NCBI GenBank assembly: GCA_963832165.1
Contig: CAWHTE010000003.1
Coordinates: 416,001 to 480,000 of the forward strand
DNA from: an uncultured delta proteobacterium
GTDB lineage: Bacteria; Myxococcota_A; UBA9160; SMWR01
DNA length: 64,000 nt
Reading direction: 5' to 3'
In this document: positions 2,864-41,506 of the stretch, piece after piece
Layout: every line of letters starts with the position of its first letter
How positions within the stretch are numbered: position 1 is the first letter of the stretch
Program-made: the position numbers and the translations under genes
The notes under the pieces: generated by a model
Databases searched by the model: none
What the model was told of the DNA's origin: nothing
Seen by the model: the letters and a program-made list of their open reading frames with translations, nothing else

Positions 2864-4517
2864 ATGCGCGCCGCACGCAGGCTGCCGATCGCGCTCGCCG
2901 TCGGTTTTCAACTGCTGTTTTTCGTCTCGGTGTTCGCGGGTCTCGGCGCGCCGCTCTTGTGGCAGGACGAGGCCGAGACGGCGATGTTCGGCCGAAGCGT
3001 GCTCGAGTTCGGCGTGCCGAAGATCCACGTCGGCCGCAACGTGCTCTACGGCGCGCCGCTGCCGCTCGAGCTCGGGCGCAACGAGGCGCTCGACGCCTAC
3101 GTCGGATCGCCGTGGGGCCAGTACTTCTTCGCGGCGCCCGCGGTCGCGTGGTCGGACGGGGCGACGGATCTCGCGACGCGCACCTGGCGCGTGCGCCTTC
3201 CGTTCGCGATCGCGGGCTGGCTCGGCGTGGTGATGCTCGGCGCCGTCGCTGCGAGCGTGTGGCCCGCCGCCGCGGGCGGGCGCGCGTGGTTCTGGCTCGG
3301 CTTCGGCGCGTGCCTCGTCTCGTCGGTCTCGCTCCAGCTCCATCTGCGCGAGGTCCGCTACTACCCGCTGGTCGTCTTCGCGCTCGGCGTGGTCGCGCAG
3401 CTCGAGGTGCGGCGCCACGTGCGCGGCGACCTGCCGCCGCTGCGCCACACGCTGCTGCTCGCTCCGGTGCTCTGGTGTCTCTTCGAGCTCTTCTACCCCG
3501 CGTTCGCGGCGGTGGGGGCGGTAGCGGGCGGCGCGCTCGGGTTCTCCTCTGGCGTTCGCGCGCGCCGCTGCGCCTGCGCAGCATCCGCCTTCGCGCGCGG
3601 CGCCGCTCCCTACGTGCTCGCGTGTGCGGCCGCGCTGCCGCTCGTCGCGCTGTTCCAGATCCCTGCGCAGAGCCGCTCGTTCTTCGAGTACTTCGCGGGG
3701 CCGGCCTCAGCGTTCGGGCATCAGCTCGCGTCCGCGGGGTTCTATCTGCTGCGATACGAGTTCTTCGCCCCCGTCGTGCTGGGTGCGCTCGCGCTCGCGC
3801 TCGCTCGCCGCCAGCTCGGGGCCGACGCGCGCGATCTGCGTTCCGCGTTCGCGGCGTGCGATCTCGTGCTGGCGCTCGCGCTGATCTGGACGCTCGTGAT
3901 CGCGCGCACGCCGCTGTTCTTCTCGCGCTATCTGGTGCCGCTCTCGCCGCTGCTCGCCGCTGCGTGCGTGCTCCAGGTGGGTTGTCTCGTCGCGCTGCGC
4001 CGCACCCACACCGCGCGCACGGCCACGGCCGGACTCGTTGCGGTGGCGCTGGCATGGGCCGCCTGCGCCGCGGTGCGCGTTCCCGAGCTGCGCGGCCGTC
4101 TCGGCGAACTGCGCGAGCCCTACCGCGGTCCGCTCGACCATGTGATCCCGTACCTCGCAACAGCAGCAAGGCCCCGCGAAGCTCGTGATCGCGACCAACT
4201 ACGAGGACTTCTCGTACATGTTCTATCTCGGGGCGACGACCGTGTTCGGCTATTACGCGCCCGAGCGCGAGCGCGACCTCACGTTCGTTCCCGACGTGAT
4301 CATCCCGCGGCCATGGCCGCGGAACCTGCGCGCGCTCGAGCATCTTGCGAGCCAGAGCTCCTACGCGCCGCGCGGATTTCCGGTCGCGAACACGCGCGTC
4401 AACAACCTGCCCGAGCTGTCCCCGCGCAATCAGGCCCAGCTCGTCCACCGCTTCCGCTCTCCGGAGCCCGGCGTGGACGGCGCGGCCCTCTTGATCGGCG
4501 AGCGGCAAAAGCCTTGA
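2864..4517 (+). CDS. Polytopic membrane glycosyltransferase (GT-C/ArnT-like), frameshifted near 4160-4185
   Basis: TM helix followed by LWQDEAETA (DE motif of GT-C enzymes), REVRYY and many hydrophobic segments; the C-terminal part continues in ORF 4185-4517 (IATNYEDFSYMFYL). Confidence 0.6.
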
Positions 4518-20209: not shown

Positions 20210-20285
20210 GCACGAGTAGCTCAGCTGGTAGAGCGCCACGTTGCCAACGTGGGGGTCGCGGGTTCGAGTCCCGTCTCGTGCTCCA
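20210..20285 (+). tRNA. tRNA-Gly (GCC)
   Basis: Full cloverleaf: GCACGAG/CTCGTGC acceptor stem, GCTC/GAGC D-stem, CCACG-TTGCCAA-CGTGG anticodon arm, GCGGG-TTCGAGT-CCCGT T-arm, U73 and encoded CCA; 76 nt. Confidence 0.97.
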
Positions 20286-23055: not shown

Positions 23056-25215
23056 TCACGGCCGCGCGGCGAGCCAGCGCAACAACGCCTCCACCGCGGA
23101 GACGTCGCGCAGCCGGCGCCGCGCGCTCGTGGGCTGATCCGCGGGCCCGACCCGGAACGTCAGACCGAGGCCCTGCAGCGCGCGGAACGCGTCCTCGTCG
23201 GTGTCGTCGTCGCCTGCATAGAGCACGCGCAGCGCGGTCGACCACGCCTGGCCATGGCGCTGGCGCAGCACGTGCAGAGCCGCGTGGCCCTTGTCCCAGG
23301 CGATCGGCGGTCGCGCCTCGATGGCGAGATGCGCGGTGCGCGGCTGGAAGCCCGCCGTGCTGATGATCACGCGCGCCTGCTCCACGAGATGCGCATGACG
23401 CTCGGCCGCGAGCTCGCGATAGTGAAGCGTCAGGGTGGCTCCCTTCTCCTCGACCCAGGCGCCGTCGCTGCACAGCGTGGCGAGCTCGGGCGCGAGGCGC
23501 TCCGCGCGCTCGGTGTAGTGGGCGAGATCGGGGTGCTGGAACGGGCTCATGTCCGGCCCCTCGATCTCGAGGCCGTGATTTCCGGCGTAGGTCAGGTCCG
23601 GTACGCCGACCATCGTGCGCACGTCGTCGATCGAGCGCCCGGACACGATGGCGAGCTCGGTGTCGGCACGCGCGGCGCACGCCGAGAGCGCAGCCCGCAT
23701 CCCGGTCGAGAGATGCGCCTCGGACGGACGCCGCGCGATCTCCGCGAGCGTGCCGTCGTAGTCGAGGAACACGACCAGCGGCCAGCCGCGCGCGAAGCGG
23801 CCGATCCAGCGCTCGAAGTCCTCCGGGCCGACGGGCACGAGCGTCGCGGGTGTGGCCGCGGCTTCGAGGAACTGATCGCACCACGCGATCACATCGTGGT
23901 CGCGCTCGCGCTGCTGGAGCGCGCGCATGCGCGCGAGGCGGTCCTCCGTGGGCATCGTCAACGCGAGGTGGAGCGCCTCGGCGACCCCGTCGATGTTGTG
24001 CGGATTGACGCGCAGCGCCTCCTCCATCGTCTCGGCGGCGCCGGTCATGTGCGAGAGCACGAGCACTCCCGGCTCCGCGACGCGGCATGCGACGAATTCC
24101 TTCGCGACCAGGTTCATTCCGTCGCGGAGCGGGGTCACGAGTGCCACGTCGGCATCGCGGTAGAGCGCCGCGAGCCGCTCCGGCTCGACCGACCGGTGGA
24201 GGTAGTGGATCGGAGTCCAGCGCGCGGTGCCGAAGCGGCCGTTCACGCGCCCGACCAGCTCGTCGATCTGACGCTTGAGCCGCTTGTAGTCACCGACCTG
24301 GCGCCGGCTCGGCACGGCGAGCTGCAGGAATACCACGCGGCCGCGGTACTCGCGGTGCTGGTGGAGCAGCCGCTCGAACGCGTGCAGGCGTTCCGGGATG
24401 CCCTTCGTGTAGTCGAGGCGGTCGACGCCCAGGATGATGCGCTCGGCGCCCTTCTCGGCCGGCGGCGCATCGTGCGCGCGCTTCTCGAACGCCGCGTAGT
24501 CGATTCCGAGCGGGAACGCGCCGACCTGGACCGTGCGCGGGCCGTGCTCGACGCGCTCTGCGCCGCGATCCACGCGCTCGCCGAGCAGGCGCTCGACGCA
24601 GTCGAGGAAGTTCGACACGTAGTCCGGACAGTGGAAGCCGATCAGGTCGCACGCGAGCATGCCGCGCAGCACCTCGCGGTACTGCGGCAGCGAGCGATAG
24701 ACGTCGTAGGACGGGAACGGAATGTGCATGAACATCGCGATTCGCGCGTCGGGGCGCATCGCGCGCAGGTGGAGTGCTGCGCGCAGCAGGTGGTAGTCGT
24801 GGATCCAGACGAGGTCGCGCGGCCCGAGCCGCCGCGCGATCGTCTCGGCGAAGCGGCGATTGATCGCGTCGTAGGTGGCCCAGAAGCGCCGATCGAGGCG
24901 CACGCGCTCCGGGAGCGTGTGGAACAACGGCCACAGTGTCTGGTTCGAATACCCTTCGTAGTAGCGGCGCACCTCGTTTGCGGTGAGATCGACCGCCTCG
25001 AGCGCATAGCCGAGGTCGAGGTCGGGCGGCGCGCCGGGTGCGCCGAGCCAGCCGACCCAGGTACCGCCGACCGCACGCAGCGCCGGGTCGATCGCCGCCA
25101 CGAGCCCGCCACTCGAGCGCCGGACCTGGTTTCCGCGGCGGTTCCGCTGAATCGTCACAGGTAGACGGTTGCTCGCGACGATCAGGTGATCGAAGTTCAC
25201 GGAGGGGGGGCGCAT
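23056..25215 (-). CDS. Bifunctional trehalose-6-phosphate synthase/phosphatase (OtsA-OtsB fusion)
   Basis: [41 protein letters not shown] and DGMNLVAKE (GT20), then [21 protein letters not shown] and [10 protein letters not shown] (HAD). Confidence 0.93.
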
Positions 25216-25263
25216 CCTCGGAAGATACTCCGGATGTCGCGCCCATCCGGCTTTGGAGGATCG

Positions 25264-27042
25264 ATGTCCGGGCTCGACCTAGCGATGGTGGGGAATTGCA
25301 CCTGGGGAGGACTGATCGACCGAAACGCGCGCCTCGTATGGGCGTGTCTGCCGCGCTTCGATTCGGATCCGATCTTTCCGGCGCTGCTGGATGGGGACGA
25401 TCGCGACGAAGGCGTGTTTGCGATCGAGATCGAGGGCCAGATCGCCTCCGAGCAGCACTACGACGGCAACACGCCGATCCTCGTCACGACGCTGCGCGAC
25501 GGGTCAGGCGGCGCGATCGAGATCCGCGATTTCGCACCGCGCTTCTCGAACCACGGCCGCTTCTACCGCCCCACGATGATGATTCGCCGCGTGCGCCCGC
25601 TCTCGGGCGAGCCGCGGGTCCGGATCCTGCTGCGCCCGCGCTGCGACTACGGTGCGGGCAGGCCCGCCACGACGCGCGGCAGCAATCACATGCGCTACGT
25701 GACCCCCGGGCTCACACTGCGCCTGACGACCGACGCGCCGATCTCGTACGTCGCGGAGGCCACGCCGTTCGTGCTCCAACGCCCGCTCGCGCTGATCCTG
25801 GGCCCGGACGAGCCGCTCGCGGCGTCGATCGACGGCACCGCGCGCGATCTCGAGGAGCGCACACACGATCACTGGGTGGAGTGGGTGCGCTCGCTCTCGA
25901 TCCCGTTCGAGTGGCAGGACGCCGTGATCCGGGCCGCGATCGCGCTGAAGCAGTGCGCCTACGAGGAGACGGGCGCGATCGTGGCCGCGCTCACGACGTC
26001 GATTCCGGAGGCGCCCAACAGCGGTCGCAACTGGGACTATCGCTACTGCTGGCTGCGCGACGCCTACTTCGTGGTCCAGGCGTTGAACCGGCTCGGCGCG
26101 ACCCGCACGATGGAGGGGTTCCTCTCCTTCATCTCCACGCTCGCGGCAACCGCGGGCGACCGCGAGCTCCAGCCGCTCTACGGAATCGGGCTCGAGACGG
26201 CGCTCCACGAGAGCGAGGCTCCCGCGCTCGCGGGCTTCCGCCACATGGGACCCGTGCGCGTCGGCAACCAGGCATTCGAGCAGATCCAGAACGACAGCTA
26301 CGGGAGCGTGGTGCTCGCGGCGACGCAGTCGTTCTTCGACCGGCGCCTCCTGCACCCGGGCGGTGAGTCGCTGTTCCGGTTGCTCGAGACGGCCGGCGAC
26401 TACGCGCTGCGGCTCTGGAACCGGCCCGACGCGGGCCTCTGGGAGCTGCGCACGCGCAGGCACGTCCACACCTTCTCTGCGGTGATGTGCTGGGCGGCGT
26501 GCGACCGGCTCGCGCGGATCGCTGCGCATCTCGGCCGTACGGCGCGCGCGCAGCACTGGCACGCGCACGCACAGAAGATCCGCGAGGAGGTGCTCGCGCG
26601 CGCGTGGAACGAACGGCGCGGCAGCTTCGTCGGCGCGTTCGAAGGCGATCAGCTCGACGCCTCGCTGCTGCTGCTGCCGGAGCTCGGCTTCCTGCCCGCG
26701 ACCGACCCGCGCTTCGGCGCGACGCTCGGCGCGATCGAGCGCGAGCTGCGGCACGGTGACTATCTCTACCGCTATTCGGACGACGAGTTCGGCGCGGCGC
26801 AGACCGCGTTCAACGTGTGCACGTTCTGGTACATCGACGCGCTCGCCGCAGTCGGCCGGCGCGAAGAGGCGCGCGCGCTGTTCGCCAACATGCTCGCGCG
26901 GCGCAACCCGGCCGGGCTGCTCTCGGAAGATCTCGACGCGAAGACGGGCGAGCTCTGGGGCAACTTCCCGCAGACCTACTCGCTGGTCGGATTGATCAAC
27001 TCGGCGATGCGGCTGTCGGTTCGCTGGGAAGAAGCGCTGTAG
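25264..27042 (+). CDS. Glycoside hydrolase family 15 (trehalase/glucoamylase-like)
   Basis: SD GGAGGA; LPRFDS, AALTTSIPE, RNWDYRYCWLRDA, DAGLWELR and GLLSED...LWGNFPQTYS. Confidence 0.92.
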   Translation: MSGLDLAMVGNCTWGGLIDRNARLVWACLPRFDSDPIFPALLDGDDRDEGVFAIEIEGQIASEQHYDGNTPILVTTLRDGSGGAIEIRDFAPRFSNHGRFYRPTMMIRRVRPLSGEPRVRILLRPRCDYGAGRPATTRGSNHMRYVTPGLTLRLTTDAPISYVAEATPFVLQRPLALILGPDEPLAASIDGTARDLEERTHDHWVEWVRSLSIPFEWQDAVIRAAIALKQCAYEETGAIVAALTTSIPEAPNSGRNWDYRYCWLRDAYFVVQALNRLGATRTMEGFLSFISTLAATAGDRELQPLYGIGLETALHESEAPALAGFRHMGPVRVGNQAFEQIQNDSYGSVVLAATQSFFDRRLLHPGGESLFRLLETAGDYALRLWNRPDAGLWELRTRRHVHTFSAVMCWAACDRLARIAAHLGRTARAQHWHAHAQKIREEVLARAWNERRGSFVGAFEGDQLDASLLLLPELGFLPATDPRFGATLGAIERELRHGDYLYRYSDDEFGAAQTAFNVCTFWYIDALAAVGRREEARALFANMLARRNPAGLLSEDLDAKTGELWGNFPQTYSLVGLINSAMRLSVRWEEAL

Positions 27043-27212: not shown

Positions 27213-27304
27213 TGCTGCCTCCGTCTACTTTCCTGTAGTAGTCGGGGGCACGTATCGCGTCAAGCGCGGCGGCCGGGGTGGTTGGCTTGCCGGGCCTCAT
27301 TCGC

Positions 27305-27716
27305 TTCGTGCAGCCGGGGTGGTTGGCTTGCTGCGGCTCATGGCTCGCCGGCCTGGGGGTGACGTTCTCTCTCGCCCGAATGATCCGAAGCCAGCGATGG
27401 CTTCAGGCTTTCAGGTTGCCGGTCCAACCCAAGTGGCCACGAGCCGTGCGACGGCCCGTGGCCGGCTCCGCTTTACTTCGCCGCAGCAAGCCAACCACCC
27501 CGCCACTCGAATTCGAACTCGTACGCCCTGGAATCGTGAACCTCTCCATGCGCTAGGCCGGGCGCTTGAATTCGCCGCCGGAGGCGTTGGTGATCCTGGA
27601 GCATATGCGTCTCCGAGCCGGCAACCATTGTGCTCCGGTGTACCGTCGTGCACGCCGACGGAGCCACAACGCCGACGCGGCGAATCAACGCCCGGCCCCA
27701 GGCAACGGACACCGCG
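27305..27716. repeat. ~400-bp structured intergenic element, copy 1
   Basis: About 95% identical to 32499-32903; module A bounded by inverted repeat 27313-27337/27480-27504; module B (27556-27697) bounded by an imperfect long inverted repeat. Confidence 0.92.
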
Positions 27717-27738
27717 TTACGCCCTTCGGGCTACTGCC

Positions 27739-29949
27739 CTACGACGCCTTGTCCGGCGTGGTGCCACCGCCCATCCATCGCGGCGCCCACCAGTTCCAGC
27801 GGCCGAGCAGGCGCATCGTGGCGGGTACGAGCAGCGCGCGCACGAGCGTCACGTCGAGCGCGATCGCAGCCGACATGCCGACCCCGATCTCCTTCACGAA
27901 GACGAGCTCGCCCGCGGCGAACGCGCCGATCACCACGAGCAGGATCAGCGCAGCGCTCGAGATCACGCGGCCCGTGTGGGCCAGCCCCGCGACGATGCTG
28001 CGCGAGTTGTCGCCGTCGCGGCGGTACTCCTCCTGGATGCGCGCGAGCAGGAACACCTCGTAGTCCATCGAGAGTCCGAACACGATCGCGGCGAGCATGA
28101 GCGGAATCGTCGGCTCGATCCCGTTGGGCGGCTCGAAGTTCAAGAGGCCCGCGAGGTGTCCATCCTGGAACACCCAGACCAGCACGCCGAAGCTCGCGCC
28201 GAGCGAGAGCAGGTTCATGAGCGCGGCCTTGATCGGTACGAGAACGGAGCGGAATGCGGTGAACAGTACCGCGAGGTTCCAGCCGACCACGCCCAGCGCG
28301 ACGATCAGCGCATAGCGCGCCAGGACGTTGTTCACATCGACGAGCTGCGCGGTCGGGCCGCCCACCTCGAGCCGGCGGCCCGGGTGCGGCAGCGAGCGCA
28401 CCGAACCCAACAGCTCCGCGGCGGCGTAGGTGCGGAACGACTGGCCGCCCTGGGCGTTGATCAGCGTGAGGTCGCCGTCGGTGGTGCGGTCGAGCTCGGT
28501 CAGCACGTCGGGATCGGTGGTGGTGACGAGCCCGTCGCTGCCGACCTGGTTCGGATCGAGCGCGTCGAGCGCAGTGTCGATCGTGGTGATCCCGGGCACC
28601 GCTGCGAGCTCTTCGAGATAGGCCTGCACACGGCGCAGCGTGTCGGGCGCGAGCACGGGCCCCTCGGTCTCGAGCACGATCTGAAGCGCCGAGGCGCCGC
28701 TCGGGTCGAACTGCGCGGGATCCGCAAGCCGCTCGTCGACGTTGCGCACCTCGGAGCCTCGCGGGAAGGTGGTGGTATCGGGCATCGCCGCTCGCATGCG
28801 CAGCGCGGGCAGGGCCGCGAGCACGAGCACGAGCGTGCAGGCGCCCGCAGTGAGCCACGGATAGCGGACCGCGAAGGTGCCGATCCCCGCCCACGCGCGG
28901 CTCGGGCCCGCGTCCTCGGGAGCGCGGCCGAGCGGGAAGCGATTGACGTTCGGCCCGAGCCAGGCGAGCAGCGCGGGCAGCATCACGAGCGCGCCGATCA
29001 GCGCGTTCGCGACCGCGAGGATCCCGCCCAGCGCCACGCTGCGCACGAGCGGCAGCGGAACCACGAACAGCACCGCCATGCTCACCATCACCGTGAGGCC
29101 CGAGATCCAGACCGCGCGCCCCGCGGTGTCGAGCGTGCGCGTCACGGCGTCGGCGGTGCTCGCGCTATGCGCCATCTCCTCGCGAAAGCGCTGCACGGTG
29201 AGCAGCGCGTAGTCGATCGAGAGACCAAGGCCGAGAAAGGCGCTCACGTTGAGCGAGAAGACGGAGATCTCCATGAAGTTCGAGATCACCTTGATCACCG
29301 CGACCGAGAGCGCCATCGCGATCGCGCCGATCGCGATCGGCAGGAGCGCCGCCACTACGCTGCGGAAGAACAGCAGCGTGAGCACGAGCGCGAGCGGCAG
29401 CGCATACATCTCGGCTTCGCCGACATCGCGCTCGGCGATCGACTGCGCGAGCGCCTCGGCGGGGATCGGGCCGCTGATCTCGACGCCCGGGAAGAGCTCG
29501 CGCAGCACCTTGTCGACGCGCGGCAGCGCGTTCACCATCTCCGACATCGAGCCCGCGAGATCGATCAGCACGATCGTGCGGTGTCCGTCGCGCGAGACGA
29601 GCGCGTCGAGCCCCGTGTCGTAGTGCGAGACGGTGCCGACGATCGCCGGGTCCTCGTAGAGCTGGTCGAGGCCGTCGAGCACGGTGCTCACGTACTCGGG
29701 GTCGCGCACGTCGAGATCGGGGCTGTACAGCATCGCCACGACGTCGGCGTTCGCGATCCCGAGCCGCTCGGTGATGCGTTTGGCCACGCGGTCCGACTCG
29801 CTGCCCGGGACGTCGATCCCGCCCGCGAGCAGCTGCTCGGCGACGTTCGCGCCGTAGAGTCCCGCGACGAGCGCGATGAGCCCCATCGTGGCCGCGACCG
29901 CGCGCGGGCGCGCGGACACCGCGCGTCCGAGCCGCGTGAACACGCTCAA
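27739..29949 (-). CDS. MMPL (RND superfamily) lipid transporter
   Basis: Two TM bundles with GLGLSIDYALL and FGLSMDYEVFLL (Asp-Tyr pairs), TAGRAV and LLGRWNWWAPRW; TTG start after AGGAG overlaps the SDR stop. Confidence 0.92.
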   Translation of the reverse strand: MSVFTRLGRAVSARPRAVAATMGLIALVAGLYGANVAEQLLAGGIDVPGSESDRVAKRITERLGIANADVVAMLYSPDLDVRDPEYVSTVLDGLDQLYEDPAIVGTVSHYDTGLDALVSRDGHRTIVLIDLAGSMSEMVNALPRVDKVLRELFPGVEISGPIPAEALAQSIAERDVGEAEMYALPLALVLTLLFFRSVVAALLPIAIGAIAMALSVAVIKVISNFMEISVFSLNVSAFLGLGLSIDYALLTVQRFREEMAHSASTADAVTRTLDTAGRAVWISGLTVMVSMAVLFVVPLPLVRSVALGGILAVANALIGALVMLPALLAWLGPNVNRFPLGRAPEDAGPSRAWAGIGTFAVRYPWLTAGACTLVLVLAALPALRMRAAMPDTTTFPRGSEVRNVDERLADPAQFDPSGASALQIVLETEGPVLAPDTLRRVQAYLEELAAVPGITTIDTALDALDPNQVGSDGLVTTTDPDVLTELDRTTDGDLTLINAQGGQSFRTYAAAELLGSVRSLPHPGRRLEVGGPTAQLVDVNNVLARYALIVALGVVGWNLAVLFTAFRSVLVPIKAALMNLLSLGASFGVLVWVFQDGHLAGLLNFEPPNGIEPTIPLMLAAIVFGLSMDYEVFLLARIQEEYRRDGDNSRSIVAGLAHTGRVISSAALILLVVIGAFAAGELVFVKEIGVGMSAAIALDVTLVRALLVPATMRLLGRWNWWAPRWMGGGTTPDKAS

Positions 29950-30794
29950 GTGCCACTCCTTCCAGCCGTGGCGCGCGCGCGCGCCTGCGTCAGGACGTCG
30001 GCGGGTACCGGGTCGAACGCGGCCATCGCGCGCCGCAACAATCCGGGCGCGATGGAGCGCAACAGACGCGCGACGAACAGCGACGCGCTGTGGCGCGGCG
30101 CCGTCCGCTCGTAGCGCCGCTTCTCGACGCATTCGAGGATCGCGTCGACCACGATGCGGGGTGAGTGTTTTCTCCCGTTGAACGCAGGCGGCTCGTCGAG
30201 CTTCCCCCAGATCTCGGTGTCGATCGCGCCCGGGTTCACGATCGCGACGTGCACACCCGAGCCGTGGAGATCGTGCCAGAGTCCCTCGCTCCAGGCGTTC
30301 AGCGCTGCCTTCGACGCCGCGTAGATCGCCTCGCGCGGCGGTGCCACGAGCGCGGCGAACGACGACACGTTCACGATCACGCCGCCGCCCTGCGCGAGCA
30401 TGGGCGGAATCGCCGCGAGCGTGGTCCAGACCGCGGAGAGGAAGTTCACGCGCATCACGGTCTCGGCTTCGTCGGGCGACAGGTCGTAGACCGGCTTGTG
30501 CTTCGGGATCGCGGCGTTGTTCACGAGCACGTCGATGCGGCCGTGGCGCGCGAGCGTCTCCGCGACGATCTGCTCCGCCATCTTGCGATCACCGAGGTCA
30601 CCCGCGATGAACGAGGCGCGCTGCGGGAGACTTGCGTTACACGCGGCGACGAGCTCGCGCAGGCGGTCTTCGCGGCGTGCGACACCCACCACGCGCGCGC
30701 CGCGCTGTGCGAACGCGAGCGCGGTCTCGTAGCCGATGCCCGACGAAGCACCGGTCACGAGTGCGACGGCGTTCTGCCAGTCCAGTCGGCTCAC
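29946..30794 (-). CDS. Short-chain dehydrogenase/reductase
   Basis: TGASSGIG, VLVNNAA and YAASK; GTG overlaps the upstream stop. Confidence 0.9.
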   Translation of the reverse strand: MSRLDWQNAVALVTGASSGIGYETALAFAQRGARVVGVARREDRLRELVAACNASLPQRASFIAGDLGDRKMAEQIVAETLARHGRIDVLVNNAAIPKHKPVYDLSPDEAETVMRVNFLSAVWTTLAAIPPMLAQGGGVIVNVSSFAALVAPPREAIYAASKAALNAWSEGLWHDLHGSGVHVAIVNPGAIDTEIWGKLDEPPAFNGRKHSPRIVVDAILECVEKRRYERTAPRHSASLFVARLLRSIAPGLLRRAMAAFDPVPADVLTQARARATAGRSGT

Positions 30795-31582
30795 GGCGTC
30801 CCGAGCCGCGCGAGCTCGCGCCGGGCGGTCTGCTTCATGAAGTCGCAGAACAGGCGCTCGGTATTGGCGGTGCAGGGCAGCGCCACGGTGCGCTCGAAGT
30901 GGGTGCGAGCCCGCGCTGCGTCGCCGTCGCGCGCCCAGAATACGGCGAATACGTAGTGATTGCGCACCGAGGCCGGTGCGATCTTCAGGGTCTTCTCGAA
31001 TTGCTCGAGCGCCACATCGCGATCGTGCACGGGCCACGGCGCCACCATGTAGAAGTTGGCCAGCAGCGATGCGCCGAGTCCGTCGTCGAACTTCGGGTCG
31101 AGGTCCACCAGGCGCTGCGCGTGGGTCCTGTACTCGCCGCCCGCGCCAGAAACGATCGAGCGGATGATCCCGAGGCTCGACACATAGAACATGTACGAGG
31201 TGGCGAGCGCTGCCGCGGCCTCCACCGACTGCGGCCGCAGCTTCTCCGCCGCGCGCGCGTGCTCGAGTGCGCGGGCGCCGAGATCGGCCCACAGCGCGCG
31301 GTTGGCAGCGGTGTCCTGGAGCCCATCGACGAGCGGCAGGTTTCCGTTGCTGCGAATGGCCATCACCTGGGACAGCGCCACGGCCGTGCCCAGGCGCAGA
31401 TCGAAGTTCGCGGGCTCCTTGGCCGCGCGCGCCTCGAGGACCCGCGCCACGCGCTCGAGCTCCTCGAGCTTCGTGCTCTCGCGCAGCACGATCTCCTCGG
31501 GTGTCGGCTCGGAGGACGCGATCACCGGTGCCGCGAGCACCGCGGCGAATACGCATGCGCGGATGAGTCGGAATCGCAGCAC
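30791..31582 (-). CDS. Exported helical/TPR-like protein (TatT-like)
   Basis: SD GAAGGAG; signal peptide; all-helical pattern with LDPKFDDGLG...FYMVAPWP...ALEQFEKTLKIAP resembling TPR/TatT repeats. Confidence 0.6.
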   Translation of the reverse strand: MLRFRLIRACVFAAVLAAPVIASSEPTPEEIVLRESTKLEELERVARVLEARAAKEPANFDLRLGTAVALSQVMAIRSNGNLPLVDGLQDTAANRALWADLGARALEHARAAEKLRPQSVEAAAALATSYMFYVSSLGIIRSIVSGAGGEYRTHAQRLVDLDPKFDDGLGASLLANFYMVAPWPVHDRDVALEQFEKTLKIAPASVRNHYVFAVFWARDGDAARARTHFERTVALPCTANTERLFCDFMKQTARRELARLGTP

Positions 31583-31635
31583 GGTGGCTCCTTCGCGGGA
31601 GTTCTTCGGGCCGCGTAGCATATCGCCTCTCACTA

Positions 31636-32460
31636 GTGGAGGGAGCGAGCTTGGATACGTTGCTGCGCGCGGGGGCATTCGAGGGCGAGACCCACATCGT
31701 CACGGGGGCAGGGCAGGGGATCGGCCGCGCGATCGCGCGGCAGCTCGCCGCGCACGGCGCGCAGGTGGTGCTCGTGGACGTCGAAGCGGGCAACCTCGCG
31801 CGCGCTTCGAACGAGATCTCGGACCAGGGAGCGCTGCGCCCGATCACCGCGGCGATCGACGTCACGGACGAGGGCGCGGTTGTGGACACCGTGCGGCGCG
31901 CGCTCGAGGCCACCGGCTGCATCAACGGCGTGGTCAACGTGGCTGGCATCGCGCGCGACGCGCGCATCATCAAGAAGAGCTATGGCGAGTTCAAGACCGT
32001 GGTCGGCGTACACCTGTTCGGCACGTTCCTGTTCATGCGCGAGGTGGCGGCGCAGCACTGGCACGCGCTGTTCAAGCAGAACGACAATCAGCCGCTCGCC
32101 GACGGCGTGAACCGCTTCATCATCAACTTCTCATCGGTCAGCGCGCGCAACGGCAACATCGGCCAGATCGACTACACGGCGGCCAAGGGCGCGATCGAGT
32201 CGGCCACCAAGACCGCCGCGCGCGAGTTCGCGAGCTACCGCGCGCGCGTGAACGCGATCGCACCCGGGCCCGTGAATACGCCGATGCTCGCGGCGGTCGG
32301 GGAGGGCGGCATCGAGGCGATGTCGCGCTCCACGCTCGTGGGGCGTGTCGCCGACCCCGACGAGATCGCGGCGACGGTCGCCGCGATCGCCGACCCGAAG
32401 CTGTTCGGCTACACGACGGGCCAGGTATTCGCCGCGAACGGTGGCATGTATCTGGACTGA
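31636..32460 (+). CDS. SDR, 3-oxoacyl-ACP/CoA reductase-like
   Basis: TGAGQGIG, NVAGIARD, GNIGQIDYTAAK and NAIAPGPVNTPM. Confidence 0.88.
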   Translation: MEGASLDTLLRAGAFEGETHIVTGAGQGIGRAIARQLAAHGAQVVLVDVEAGNLARASNEISDQGALRPITAAIDVTDEGAVVDTVRRALEATGCINGVVNVAGIARDARIIKKSYGEFKTVVGVHLFGTFLFMREVAAQHWHALFKQNDNQPLADGVNRFIINFSSVSARNGNIGQIDYTAAKGAIESATKTAAREFASYRARVNAIAPGPVNTPMLAAVGEGGIEAMSRSTLVGRVADPDEIAATVAAIADPKLFGYTTGQVFAANGGMYLD

Positions 32461-32498
32461 TCGGCGCGCCTTCGGCGCGCGGGATGCGAACTTGGTTG

Positions 32499-32903
32499 TT
32501 CGTGCGGCCGGGGTGGTTGGCTTGCTGCGGCTCATGGCTCGCCGGCCTGGGGGTGACGTTCTCTCTCGCCCGAAGGGTCCGAAGCCAGCGATTGCTTCAG
32601 GCTTTCAGGTTGCCGGTCCAACCCAAGTGGCCACGAGCCGTGCGACGGCCCGTGGCCGGCTCCGCTTTACTTCGCCGCAGCAAGCCAACCACCCCGGCAC
32701 TCGAACTCGAACGCCCTGGACGCGTGAACCTCTCGATGCGCTAGGCCGGGCGCTTGAATTCGCCGCCGGAGGCGTTGGTGATCCTGGAGCATATGCGTCT
32801 CCGAGCCGGCAACCGTTGTGCTCCGGTGCACCGTCGTGCACGCCGACGGAGCCACAACGCCGACGCGGCGAATCAACGCCCGGCCGCAGGCAGGAACACC
32901 GCG
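32499..32903. repeat. ~400-bp structured intergenic element, copy 2 (same orientation)
   Basis: Perfect 25-bp inverted repeat 32507-32531/32674-32698; module B 32744-32885; lies between convergent SDR genes. Confidence 0.92.
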
Positions 32904-32910
32904 GGCCGCC

Positions 32911-33732
32911 CTACTCGACCTTCACGGGCTCCTTGGCGCGTTCGAGCGCTGCGATCACCTTCGCGAAGCGGTCGGCGATCAGCGGCTCGAACTCGGGGTG
33001 CGTGAAGACGTAGAGCGCGCCTTCGCGCACGCCGCGCAGCGCGTGGCGGCCGACCTCGAGCGGGTCCATGCCCTCGGCCATGCCCGGCGTGATGATGTCG
33101 AGCTGATCCGGTGCACTGCCGAGCGCCGCGGGGCGGTTGCGCGAGGCATCGCCGAGGTTCGTGTTCGTCCAGCCCGGACACAGCACCGAGACGCCGATCC
33201 CACGCTGTGCGAGCTCGAGCGCGAGCGATTCGCTGTAGGCGACCACCGCGTACTTGGTGGCGCTGTACATCCCGAGCACGGGGCCCGAGAGGAAGCCGCC
33301 CACGGAGGCCGTGTTCACCACGTGCGCGCGCGTTCCGCTCGCGAGCCAGCGCGGCACGAACGCGCGGCAGCCGTTGACGACGCCGAAGAGGTTCACGCGG
33401 ATCAGCCAGTCCCAGTCCGCCGCGCTGAACTCGTGGATCGCGCCGCCCTGTGCGACGCCGGCGTTGTTGAACAGCACATCGACGCCGCCAAAGCGCGCGA
33501 AGGCCTGATCGGCGAGCGCCTCCAGGTCGGCCGGATCGCTCACGTCGGTGCGCACCGCGAAGGCGGCCGTCCCGGCGGCCTCGAGCTCGCGCGCGAAGCG
33601 CTCGGCGGGGGCGAGCTCGATGTCGGCGAGCACCACCCGCATGCCCTGCTCGGCGCACGCGCGCGCGATGCCCGCACCGATTCCGCTCGCACCGCCCGTC
33701 ACCACCGCCACGCGCCCCGAAAGGTTCTCCAT
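32911..33732 (-). CDS. Short-chain dehydrogenase/reductase
   Basis: TGGASGIG, NNAGV and YSATKYAV; SD GGAGG before ATG. Confidence 0.9.
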   Translation of the reverse strand: MENLSGRVAVVTGGASGIGAGIARACAEQGMRVVLADIELAPAERFARELEAAGTAAFAVRTDVSDPADLEALADQAFARFGGVDVLFNNAGVAQGGAIHEFSAADWDWLIRVNLFGVVNGCRAFVPRWLASGTRAHVVNTASVGGFLSGPVLGMYSATKYAVVAYSESLALELAQRGIGVSVLCPGWTNTNLGDASRNRPAALGSAPDQLDIITPGMAEGMDPLEVGRHALRGVREGALYVFTHPEFEPLIADRFAKVIAALERAKEPVKVE

Positions 33733-33760
33733 GAAGCCTCCTGCGCCGCAAGCATCGCAT

Positions 33761-34756
33761 ATGCTGTGCGCCGTGGACGAGCCCCAGCGTGTGTTCGTGA
33801 CGCGCGAAATCCCCGAGGCCTCCCTGAAGCTCCTGGCCGAGGGGCTGCCCGGCGCGCGCATCGACGTACACCGCTCGGCGGAGCGACTCTCTCCGCGCGA
33901 GCTCGAGCGCGCGGCGCGCGGGGCCACCGCGCTCGTGTGCACGCTCGCCGATCGCATCGACGCGGCGCTGCTCGAGGCGCTCGCGCCGCCGCTGCGCGTG
34001 GTGGCGACGTTCGCAGTCGGCTACGAGAACATCGACCTCGACGCCGCGCGCCGGCTCGGTGTGCACGTCGCGAACACGCCGGGCGTGCTCACCGACGCGA
34101 CGGCCGAGGTCGCCGTTGCGCTCGTGCTCGCGTGCGCGCGGCGCGTCGCCGAAGGCGACCGGTTCGTGCGCGCGGGGCGCTTCTCGGGCTGGGGTCCGCT
34201 CGCGCACCGCGGGCACGCGATCTACGGGAGCACGGTGGGAATCGTCGGCGCGGGTCGGATCGGCCATCGCGTCGCGGCGACGCTGCGCCGCGGCTTCGAC
34301 TGCGAGATCCTCGTGCATTCGCGCCGCGTTCCCGCACAGCCGGATTGGCAGCGCGAGCTCGGCGCGCGCTTCGTGCCACTCGAAGAGCTGCTCGAGCGCT
34401 CCGACGCGATCTCGCTGCACTGTCCACTCACGGCGGAGACGCGCCACCTGATCGACGCGCGCGCGCTCGCGCGCATGAAGCGCAGCGCGGTGCTCGTGAA
34501 CACGGCGCGCGGTCCGATCGTCGACGAGAACGCGCTCGTGGCGGCGCTGCGCGCGGGCACGATCGCGGCCGTGGGGCTCGATGTGTACGAGGACGAGCCG
34601 CGTCTGGCTCCGGGGCTCGCCGAGCAGGGCAACGCGGTGCTGCTTCCGCACATCGGCAGCGCCACACACGCGGCGCGCGATGCGATGGGCCGGCTGTGCG
34701 CCGAGGCCGTGATCGCGGAGCTCTCGGGTCGCGCCGCTGCCCATCGGCTGGTTTAG
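33761..34756 (+). CDS. D-2-hydroxyacid dehydrogenase (glyoxylate reductase-like)
   Basis: VGYENID, NTPGVLTDATAE, GAGRIG, NTARG, LDVYEDEP and PHIGSAT. Confidence 0.9.
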   Translation: MLCAVDEPQRVFVTREIPEASLKLLAEGLPGARIDVHRSAERLSPRELERAARGATALVCTLADRIDAALLEALAPPLRVVATFAVGYENIDLDAARRLGVHVANTPGVLTDATAEVAVALVLACARRVAEGDRFVRAGRFSGWGPLAHRGHAIYGSTVGIVGAGRIGHRVAATLRRGFDCEILVHSRRVPAQPDWQRELGARFVPLEELLERSDAISLHCPLTAETRHLIDARALARMKRSAVLVNTARGPIVDENALVAALRAGTIAAVGLDVYEDEPRLAPGLAEQGNAVLLPHIGSATHAARDAMGRLCAEAVIAELSGRAAAHRLV

Positions 34757-40503: not shown

Positions 40504-40559
40504 TTGATCTCCTTCGAGTGCGGCGACCCCCGCCGTGCTCCAGAACAGGGAGATCCAAA

Positions 40560-40931
40560 ATGAAGAAGAACACGACCTGGACGATCTGCGGCTTGACGCT
40601 TCTCAGCCTGGCGCTCTACGCCCCCAGCGCTCTCGCGCAGGACGTACAGCAGGAGAAGACCACCACCACGACCACGACCAAGACTTTCAGCTCGGGCACC
40701 GTGAGCACGATGAGCCCCGAGTCGATCGTAATCCGGACGTCGGGGGCGGCAGCTCCGATCACCTACGAGTTCACGGAAACCACGACCTACGTCGACGAGG
40801 CCGGTAATCCGGTCAAGGTCGAGACGGTGAAGACGGGCGTCCCGGTGACGATCTATTACTCGCAGGACGGAGACAAGATGGTCGCCACGAAGGTGGTCGT
40901 GAAGAAGACGGTCAGCCCGCCGAAGGGGTAG
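40560..40931 (+). CDS. Small secreted beta-rich protein (OB-fold/DUF5666-like), paralog 1
   Basis: SD GGGAG; signal peptide ending ALA-Q; Thr run; TETTTYVDEAGNPV...VTIYYSQDGDKMVATKVVVK. Confidence 0.8.
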   Translation: MKKNTTWTICGLTLLSLALYAPSALAQDVQQEKTTTTTTTKTFSSGTVSTMSPESIVIRTSGAAAPITYEFTETTTYVDEAGNPVKVETVKTGVPVTIYYSQDGDKMVATKVVVKKTVSPPKG

Positions 40932-41088: not shown

Positions 41089-41143
41089 CATTTGGGCGTG
41101 ACGGCGCAATCCGTGCGCCGTGCGATCGAACGGGGGAATCACC

Positions 41144-41506
41144 GTGAACAAGAACGCCCTCCGGACGCTTTGCGGACTGACGCTTCTCGGCGTGGCGCTG
41201 TCTGCCCCGAGCGTCCTCGCGGAACCGGCGCGGCCGAAGAAGCCCACCACGACGACCACCGCCACGATGAATCGGTCGGGATTCGTCAGCGAGCTCGGTC
41301 CGGACACGATCGTGATCCGGACGGCGACGTCGGTTCTGCCCTTCGCCTATCAGTCCACCGAGACCACGACGTTCGTGGACGGCGCCGGGAACCCCGTCCA
41401 GACGGACGTGGTGAAATCCGGCGCGGAGGTGACCATCTACTACTCCAAGTCCGGAGACAAGATGGTCGCCAGCAAGGTGGTCGTGAAGGAGACGCCTAGC
41501 GGCTAG
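41144..41506 (+). CDS. Small secreted beta-rich protein, paralog 2
   Basis: Signal peptide; Thr run; TETTTFVDGAGNPV...VTIYYSKSGDKMVASKVVVK, clearly homologous to 40560-40931. Confidence 0.8.
   Translation: MNKNALRTLCGLTLLGVALSAPSVLAEPARPKKPTTTTTATMNRSGFVSELGPDTIVIRTATSVLPFAYQSTETTTFVDGAGNPVQTDVVKSGAEVTIYYSKSGDKMVASKVVVKETPSG

Follow-up and report, generated by a model that had tools for sequence, protein, structure and literature searches.

The DNA analysed here, referred to as the window, comprises 64,000 nucleotides of contig CAWHTE010000003.1 (assembly GCA_963832165.1) from an uncultured delta proteobacterium, and its strongest repeat by far is a structured element of about 400 bp that is present in two copies. 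When the window was compared with itself by BLAST, positions 27305-27725 aligned with 32499-32912 at 94.3% identity over 421 columns (E=0), and the flanks of the two copies were unrelated to each other, in agreement with a preliminary description, made from the letters of the window, of near-identical direct repeats with unrelated flanks. Copy 1 lies between a glycoside hydrolase family 15 gene on the plus strand (25186..27042) and an MMPL family gene on the minus strand (27739..30132), and copy 2 between two convergent short-chain dehydrogenase genes (31636..32460, plus strand, and 32911..33957, minus strand); all four genes are flanks outside the element.

Each copy could be resolved into a long hairpin (A), a linker, a second hairpin (B) and a tail with the remains of a repetitive extragenic palindrome (REP) of the GTAG type. 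In copy 1, hairpin A occupies 27313..27504 on the minus strand (covariance-model match C3:443306-443509), and an extra partial left arm of the same hairpin precedes the copy at 27272..27292 on the plus strand (match C3:443272). Its 25-bp arms (27313-27337/27480-27504) contain one mismatch and frame the two halves of an invariant core (27340-27349 and 27464-27479), between which lies a loop specific to the subfamily; judging from the family as a whole, the favoured fold is probably that of the minus strand. The linker (27505..27552, no strand) consists of hexamer repeats and a conserved block that also stands ahead of B-only copies, and is followed by hairpin B with a CTAG foot and a type I interior (27553..27697, plus strand) and by the tail with a degraded GTAG-type REP (27698..27742, minus strand), the GTAG of the REP sharing bases with the MMPL stop codon. 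Copy 2 has hairpin A at 32507..32698 (minus strand; covariance-model match C3:448500-448703) with perfectly paired arms (32507-32531/32674-32698) and core halves at 32534-32543 and 32658-32673, the linker at 32699..32740 (no strand), hairpin B with a CTAG foot and a type I interior at 32741..32885 (plus strand), and a shortened tail with a REP remnant at 32886..32914 (minus strand) that overlaps the stop of the dehydrogenase gene.

The repeat was predicted to fold with z-scores of -5.9 (plus strand) and -6.2 (minus strand) against 100 shuffles, and both the 25-bp inverted repeat closing hairpin A and the bulged stem of hairpin B were found as described earlier. The small hairpins proposed inside A were also present, although a pair of the GNRA hairpin is broken in copy 2, and they belong to the subfamily of the source genome, the loop being unstructured across the family. 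Similarly, the heptamer GCCCTAC (27736-27742 and 32908-32914), before which both copies had been said to end, does contain the stop codons of the minus-strand MMPL and dehydrogenase genes, but it represents an ordinary GTAG-type REP end.

Beyond the two copies in the window, the source genome was found to contain nine more, giving 11 in which hairpin A, the linker and the outer stem of hairpin B are 93.5-98% identical over 246 nt. The interior of hairpin B is of type I, as in the window, in eight of these and of an unrelated type II in three; 22 of the 54 linker columns vary, and a more or less intact GTAG-type REP forms the right end in 4/11. Further partial copies were also present: one in which A has collapsed, a diverged A-B, two half copies of A, and B without A in three forms, namely with just the linker, on its own and as an inverted B-B pair. 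Copies of B carry CTAG or GTAG feet, and one B copy lies inside the co-directional gap between uvrB and uvrC. The composite is ragged at both ends, its inverted repeats being internal, and no target duplication was found: the longest word shared by left and right flanks was 5-7 nt with no fixed place, and the genomes with empty sites, at about 80% identity, are too distant for junctions to be read. No replication-strand bias was detected (8 vs 9 sites). A 343-bp inverted repeat close to a contig end of the same genome (C7:2927-3682) is possibly an assembly fold-back.

In genomes of the same genus, the site of copy 2 was empty in one (G005), where the two dehydrogenase stops nearly touch, and was occupied in another (G003, L259, C252:6618-6861) by a different insert, some 240 nt long and repeat-like, while the site of copy 1 was empty in a third (G004), whose hydrolase and MMPL genes are about 76 nt apart. 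Since both sites of the window are empty in same-genus genomes, the two copies are regarded as lineage-specific insertions. A 308-nt contig from soil run X1 covers 27393-27700 (the A loop, linker and B) with 12 differences (96%); across four soil runs no joint spanning either window copy was found. The duplication is not an assembly artefact, because the 11 copies differ from one another by 2-6.5% and have distinct flanks, and because the soil contig carries the composite. The copies look recombined, in that 13 of 28 pairs of informative sites failed the four-gamete test and six of eight sites conflicted with the B type, though with so few sites repeated mutation is possible. As judged from these comparisons, the composite is a real, recent and lineage-specific mosaic, and the earlier proposal of a recently spread, non-autonomous, structured and REP-like element moved in trans accords with the 11 copies and the empty sites in relatives. 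A search for the hairpin B pattern in five same-genus genomes gave no excess over the reversed control; separately, 38 nt in G005 (L018:322-359) match the interior of type I hairpin B, the rest of the element being absent there.

Hairpin A proved to be far more widespread than the composite. Its stem of about 25 bp keeps a fixed register in 114 of 126 diverse units and stops sharply, with stem positions Watson-Crick paired in 67-97% of these units compared with an expected 29-78%, and two-sided changes were seen at 26 of 30 consensus pairs among 60 sequences, so that the covariation sought among homologues turned out to be strong. At the top of the stem lies an asymmetric internal loop, the core, of about 24 fixed bases. 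This combination is clearest in G043, a single-contig genome that is 96% complete, in which the core halves of all 15 copies are identical letter for letter, while the stems are a median 48% alike and nevertheless pair at 21-23 of 23 positions. The terminal loop, by contrast with the stem, showed no folding beyond that of shuffled sequences (mean z 0.04 and 0.13 for 70 of the 179 loops). Its length is fixed per subfamily, being 67 nt in 20/21 units of G194, 68 nt in 17/18 units of G193, 37-40 nt in G043 and 106 nt in the source genome, and ranges from about 30 to 110 nt across subfamilies; a family-wide loop of 66 nt was rejected as partly an artefact of the gap in the search pattern. Units of A measure about 110-190 nt, and hairpin B about 145 nt. 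In five genomes the matches to right core halves and the whole units corresponded nearly one for one, and an autonomous version, carrying a gene within its loop, appears excluded, if only indirectly.

The mismatches in the stem were informative as to strand. Those of the G.T class numbered 165 on the strand reading GAAGT..AGCGCAGCC first and 46 on the other (summed counts), and a separate count, in which the units are not independent, gave 238 vs 53; immediately outside the stem the same classes were balanced (108 vs 118). The skew suggests that hairpin A favours one strand for its best fold. Hairpins A and B favour opposite strands, and type II hairpin B shows, by eye, an internal loop that is likewise rich in purines and lies on the opposite strand, which makes the A-linker-B layout outward-facing, like the doublets of A units and the B-B pair. 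The 400-bp unit is accordingly an outward-facing hetero-doublet, sometimes with a GTAG-type REP, and was recently copied to at least 11 gene ends of the source genome.

The preliminary description had also entertained a new non-coding RNA, and a stand-alone structured RNA or ribozyme gene family of about 400 nt would account for the stable predicted fold and for the covariation. Such a gene is, however, hard to reconcile with a mosaic of parts that occur separately, with two alternative interiors of hairpin B, with a family loop whose inner structure is neither conserved nor better than that of shuffles, with hairpins favouring opposite strands, and with units lying in both orientations on mRNAs; a search of Rfam 15 gave no match at the gathering score either (best E 2.6). 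This explanation is considered very unlikely, and the accompanying remark that the element was not recognised as any known family holds as far as Rfam 15 is concerned.

Relatives of hairpin A retain only two short motifs, ATGGCTCG(C/G) and (G/T)(G/C)CT(G/C)CGCT-N1-2-ANTTC, within a long stem. A pattern built on them, with a gap that excludes the longer loop of the source genome, matched 82 of the 193 genomes of the order at up to 63 matches per genome, the reversed-pattern control giving 0. The covariance model recovered 12 copies in the source genome and, with 20 candidates scored per genome, matched 11 of 141 genomes of the phylum, all within this order. Scans of wider collections gave at least 122 loci each, by record title mostly Myxococcota/Deltaproteobacteria among the matches listed; a few titles among these named Spirochaetaceae, Nevskiaceae, Gammaproteobacteria and others (titles only). 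Viral contigs gave 0 pattern matches. Within genera the distribution is patchy, as in genus g62 with 0 to 31 copies per genome. No description of the family was found in the literature covered, which does not extend to most subscription papers and to the supplements of repeat surveys (e.g. PMC3733652, PMC2267715). So far as searched, the comparisons indicate that an old and uncatalogued family spans the order, with hairpin A as one of its subfamilies, and the repeat is of the palindromic intergenic kind, unusual for its strict geometry, exchange of parts and missing enzyme.

Some loci of the family showed additional arrangements. Direct tandem arrays of A units with a 131-153-nt period and near-identical loops occur in G016 (C22, C94, C223), and some subfamilies have the loop of their hairpin A taken up by a small REP-like motif (L069, L080, L084, L096, L097, L172, L177, L180, L183). 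A gene for a secreted protein stands between the two units of an A doublet at L051:1500-2920 (G081) and L047:1376-2717 (G083); the same locus in G033 holds a short doublet without the gene, so gain or loss of cargo is possible.

The position of the units relative to genes was strongly skewed. Based on codon-score gene calls made for this analysis, 101 of the 155 units with both neighbours called lie in convergent gaps, 45 in tandem and nine in divergent gaps, against a genome baseline of 753/4804 convergent, and the core-left (ATGG) end falls at most 80 nt from a stop codon in 205 of 280 units. An apparent polarity (93 of 106 units behind a same-strand gene) was rejected, since convergent gaps produced most of it. 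Units between tandem genes were found in both orientations on the mRNA strand (25 vs 20), so that no orientation on the mRNA is required; among single units, 27 mRNAs carried the less stable orientation against 13 with the other (p 0.04, without correction for kinship). Inverted doublets are common, 119 of 280 units lying no more than 420 nt from another unit or half unit by a loose pattern. At one orthologous site located by synteny, a doublet has been kept in six genomes with cores 96-100% and stems 77-82% identical, compared with 75-80% for third codon positions, 51-56% for the loops at constant length and 36% for the spacer. In a seventh genome (L288, G217:C609, ~4234-4281) only the outer feet are left, joined as a small palindrome.

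A possible explanation for these data is that the host keeps the hairpin as an RNA element of the 3' untranslated region, namely a terminator, a processing site or a barrier to antisense read-through between convergent genes, with the doublet guarding both genes, the element acting in transcripts that enter from the other side, and spread occurring by ordinary recombination only. The conservation of the cores far above third codon positions, the G.U-type strand bias, the preference for convergent gaps and stop codons, and the fact that no partner enzyme gene was found among the families searched would all be consistent with this, and E. coli REPs serve as terminators or stabilisers in 3' untranslated regions according to one report (10.64898/2026.03.23.713779). 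A role in RNA explains conservation and position, but accounts less well for the patchiness within genera, the empty orthologous sites in relatives and the bursts, since 11 recent copies require a copying process; the tandem-gap mRNAs with the less stable orientation and the B copy between the co-directional uvrB and uvrC also argue against it. It is therefore held as a tentative and, on balance, improbable sole explanation.

Further indications of mechanism came from the exchange of parts between copies. In one doublet compared between orthologous loci (L134+ and L087+), the stems of one unit are 96% and the gene 94% alike, whereas the loop is only 70% alike; in the partner unit both stem and loop are alike (97%, 96-100%). 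The deviating L134+ loop matches, at 97% identity, the loop of L089+, which lies elsewhere in the same assembly at an unrelated site and has stems only 52-57% alike. Among 891 within-assembly pairs, ten combined a loop of at least 85% with a stem below 70% identity (one of the ten is tandem), and 38 combined a stem of at least 90% with a loop below 70%, where faster loop drift may be responsible; some assemblies were possibly counted twice. The exchange junctions fall in or at the invariant cores. Loop exchange, with its one clean case, is probably the most informative clue to the mechanism, and the family preserves its core and the pairing of its stem, whereas everything else varies or is swapped between copies.

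On this basis, the invariant internal loop might be a structure-specific single-strand recombination site for an enzyme inherited vertically within the order, with folded hairpins swapping strands at the core, so that loops would pass from stem to stem and units would be copied to further gene ends. We regard this as a speculative possibility; if true, it would be a third such system beside integron attC/IntI and REP/TnpA-REP, and a new structure-specific recombination system whose site consists of about 24 fixed bases plus any 25-bp stem.

The search for a partner enzyme covered several transposase and nuclease families. Pfam scans of 191 of 222 neighbouring open reading frames (31 short fragments being excluded), and of 25/29 in G043, revealed no transposase, the neighbours being housekeeping and metabolic genes. 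Nine transposases compared by tblastn with 273 loci gave two matches: one unit (L083) lies next to a broken fragment of Y2, and at L414 the pattern match has no stem and falls within a Y1 gene, which was judged to be chance. Neither Y2/IS91 (10/14 A-rich vs 10/14 A-less genomes) nor the four-helix-bundle family PF05635 (0/14 vs 1/14) tracked the repeat; DUF559 was found in 0/15 genomes, and GIY-YIG gave one or two matches per genome in 14/15, mostly in long, UvrC-sized frames, and none among the neighbour proteins scanned. G043, with its 15 copies on one contig, gave no match for Y1, Y2, IS110 or PF05635. Because this was a loose first look and the genomes are incomplete, these results mean "not found", and only for the families tested. 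The survey also brought up a family of Y1/HUH genes of ~180 residues that score weakly in Pfam, have their own palindromic flanks and bear no relation to hairpins A and B, with 11 copies in the source genome (C2:485363 and ten more sites; L001, L003-L008) and 29 strong matches in G195 (L191-L219).

These searches bear on two explanations that attribute the element to a known enzyme. In the first, the element would be a MITE (a miniature transposable element with inverted repeats) belonging to a DDE transposase, or a non-autonomous derivative of IS110/IS1111 with a bridge RNA, for which the 25-bp inverted repeat and the six IS110 genes of the source genome could be cited. That repeat is internal, however, and the ragged ends and failure to find a target duplication do not fit the classical MITE considered in the preliminary description. 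No BLAST or motif match to the element was found at the six IS110 loci, no A or B motif was found near the 12 Y1 genes of the source genome or those of G033 and G195, the flanks of both gene types being dissimilar to the element, and IS110 is present in 5/14 A-rich compared with 9/14 A-less genomes. This explanation is largely refuted and is given hardly any weight.

In the second, the composite would be a large bacterial interspersed mosaic element (BIME) of the resident REP-associated tyrosine transposase (RAYT), which would copy it by way of the REP and the CTAG- or GTAG-footed hairpin B, with hairpin A as a passenger from an older system. The source genome encodes one canonical RAYT (C4:535459, L002) with GTAG-type REPs on both sides, and two types of such REPs with 56 and 113 matches genome-wide; the REP end in 4/11 copies and the CTAG or GTAG feet of hairpin B also point in this direction. 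On the other hand, the REP end is missing in 7/11 copies, and the A family expands and keeps its core where no Y1 gene (PF01797) was detectable, as in 10 of the 16 A-bearing genomes tested, including single-contig G043. The resident RAYT may thus explain the burst in the source genome, but not the family, and as an account of the whole this reading is doubtful.

The copying to new gene ends, the long persistence, the fixed geometry with free sequence, the one-strand bias and the exchange of parts are best explained, with a probability of roughly 0.55, if the family is a non-autonomous DNA hairpin repeat, similar to BIMEs and to REP doublets forming hairpins (REPINs), that is acted on in trans by a hairpin-reading enzyme. 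A trans-acting protein would recognise the invariant core in a folded single strand, measure the stem, and cut and rejoin at the core, comparable to the action of TnpA-REP at REPs or of IntI at attC. Cutting and rejoining could both copy units into gene-end gaps and swap loops between stems, so that a single enzyme would explain the conserved cores, the copying and the loop swaps together, and copies would survive where they are least harmful or somewhat useful, between convergent 3' ends. The recent burst in the source genome may have been the work of its own GTAG RAYT, acting via the REP and the CTAG- or GTAG-footed B hairpin.

Several observations weigh against this proposal. Movement and cleavage are inferred rather than directly observed, there is a single clean case of exchange, and the four-gamete failures concern eight sites and are explicable by repeated mutation. 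Cores retained at 96-100% while loops fall to 51-56% are not expected of a pure parasite whose enzyme is missing, and could mean host selection at the RNA level; the G.U tolerance and the A/C-rich open loop on the favoured strand suit RNA as well as DNA. To the ten genomes in which Y1 was not found can be added that no recurring mobile gene was found among 484 neighbouring open reading frames of 275 loci, and that a GTAG lies near the foot of hairpin A in only 3/281 units on either strand. The explanations considered here are not mutually exclusive. Many bacterial hairpin repeats lack a known mobiliser, and this family offers a good handle on that question: given the patchy presence (82/193 genomes, 0-63 copies), the tiny and sharp core, and one-contig genomes with and without the repeat, a presence/absence comparison of proteomes can name candidate enzymes. 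If the hairpin is instead a regulator of 3' ends, it would be an example of a repeat that the host retains purely because of its geometry.

Elsewhere in the window, two tandem small genes (40531-40910 and 41116-41494; 70% DNA identity) encode secreted-looking proteins with threonine runs, and a tRNA gene lies at 20210-20282.

Among known systems, hairpin MITEs of the ERIC/IRU and YPAL/RU-2 type share with hairpin A that they are lineage-specific, non-coding, long intergenic hairpins of 100-200 nt, and their mobiliser is mostly unidentified (PMC2229807). Hairpin A differs from them in lacking TA ends or a target duplication, in being GC-rich, in the copy-specific sequence of its stem and in forming doublets; it also lacks the terminal inverted repeats at precise ends that mark DDE-type MITEs (ERIC, Correia, RUP), and it shares no ends with an IS110 of the host, as IS110/IS1111 derivatives would. 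With integron attC sites, as characterised in PMC5027507, it has in common a one-strand DNA-like hairpin with a sequence-free stem, a variable terminal loop and strand skew, a location just behind stop codons, and parts exchanged between sites. The RYYYAAC/GTTRRRY boxes by which the same source defines attC are absent (0/281 units), the conserved part lies at the top of the stem and not at its foot, and neither cassette arrays of co-oriented gene-unit pairs nor a neighbouring integrase was seen among the A loci examined.

The comparison with REPs is the closest, and the differences are specific. REPs and REPINs of the GTAG superfamily carry GTAG (or GTGG) 0-2 nt 5' of the hairpin foot, which applies only to the terminal REP of the composite and, as CTAG/GTAG, to hairpin B; with GGAG/GTGG included, 58/281 A units have such a motif in a 10-nt window, at no fixed position. 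CGTC REPs go with a small adjacent GIY-YIG gene (Ssn), and CGTC stands near the foot in only 16 and 12 of 281 A units. A REP is moreover a short palindrome of 20-65 nt, a size that both A and B exceed, and it has neither an asymmetric invariant internal loop nor a sequence-free 25-bp stem; no RAYT lies beside or tracks hairpin A, and in A doublets, unlike REPINs, the favoured strands point outward from the doublet spacer. What is shared with REPINs and BIMEs is nevertheless extensive: an extragenic location, multiple copies, inverted doublets, mosaic clusters, vertical persistence and a preference for gene ends, according to sources on these elements (PMC3116915, PMC8049555, PMC3479197) and on REP feet, REPtrons and repeats without a dedicated transposase (PMC6006769, PMC3733652). 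In REPINs, conserved ends enclose a spacer that is variable in sequence and fixed in length, with compensatory changes in the stem (PMC3116915), and hairpin A is built likewise.

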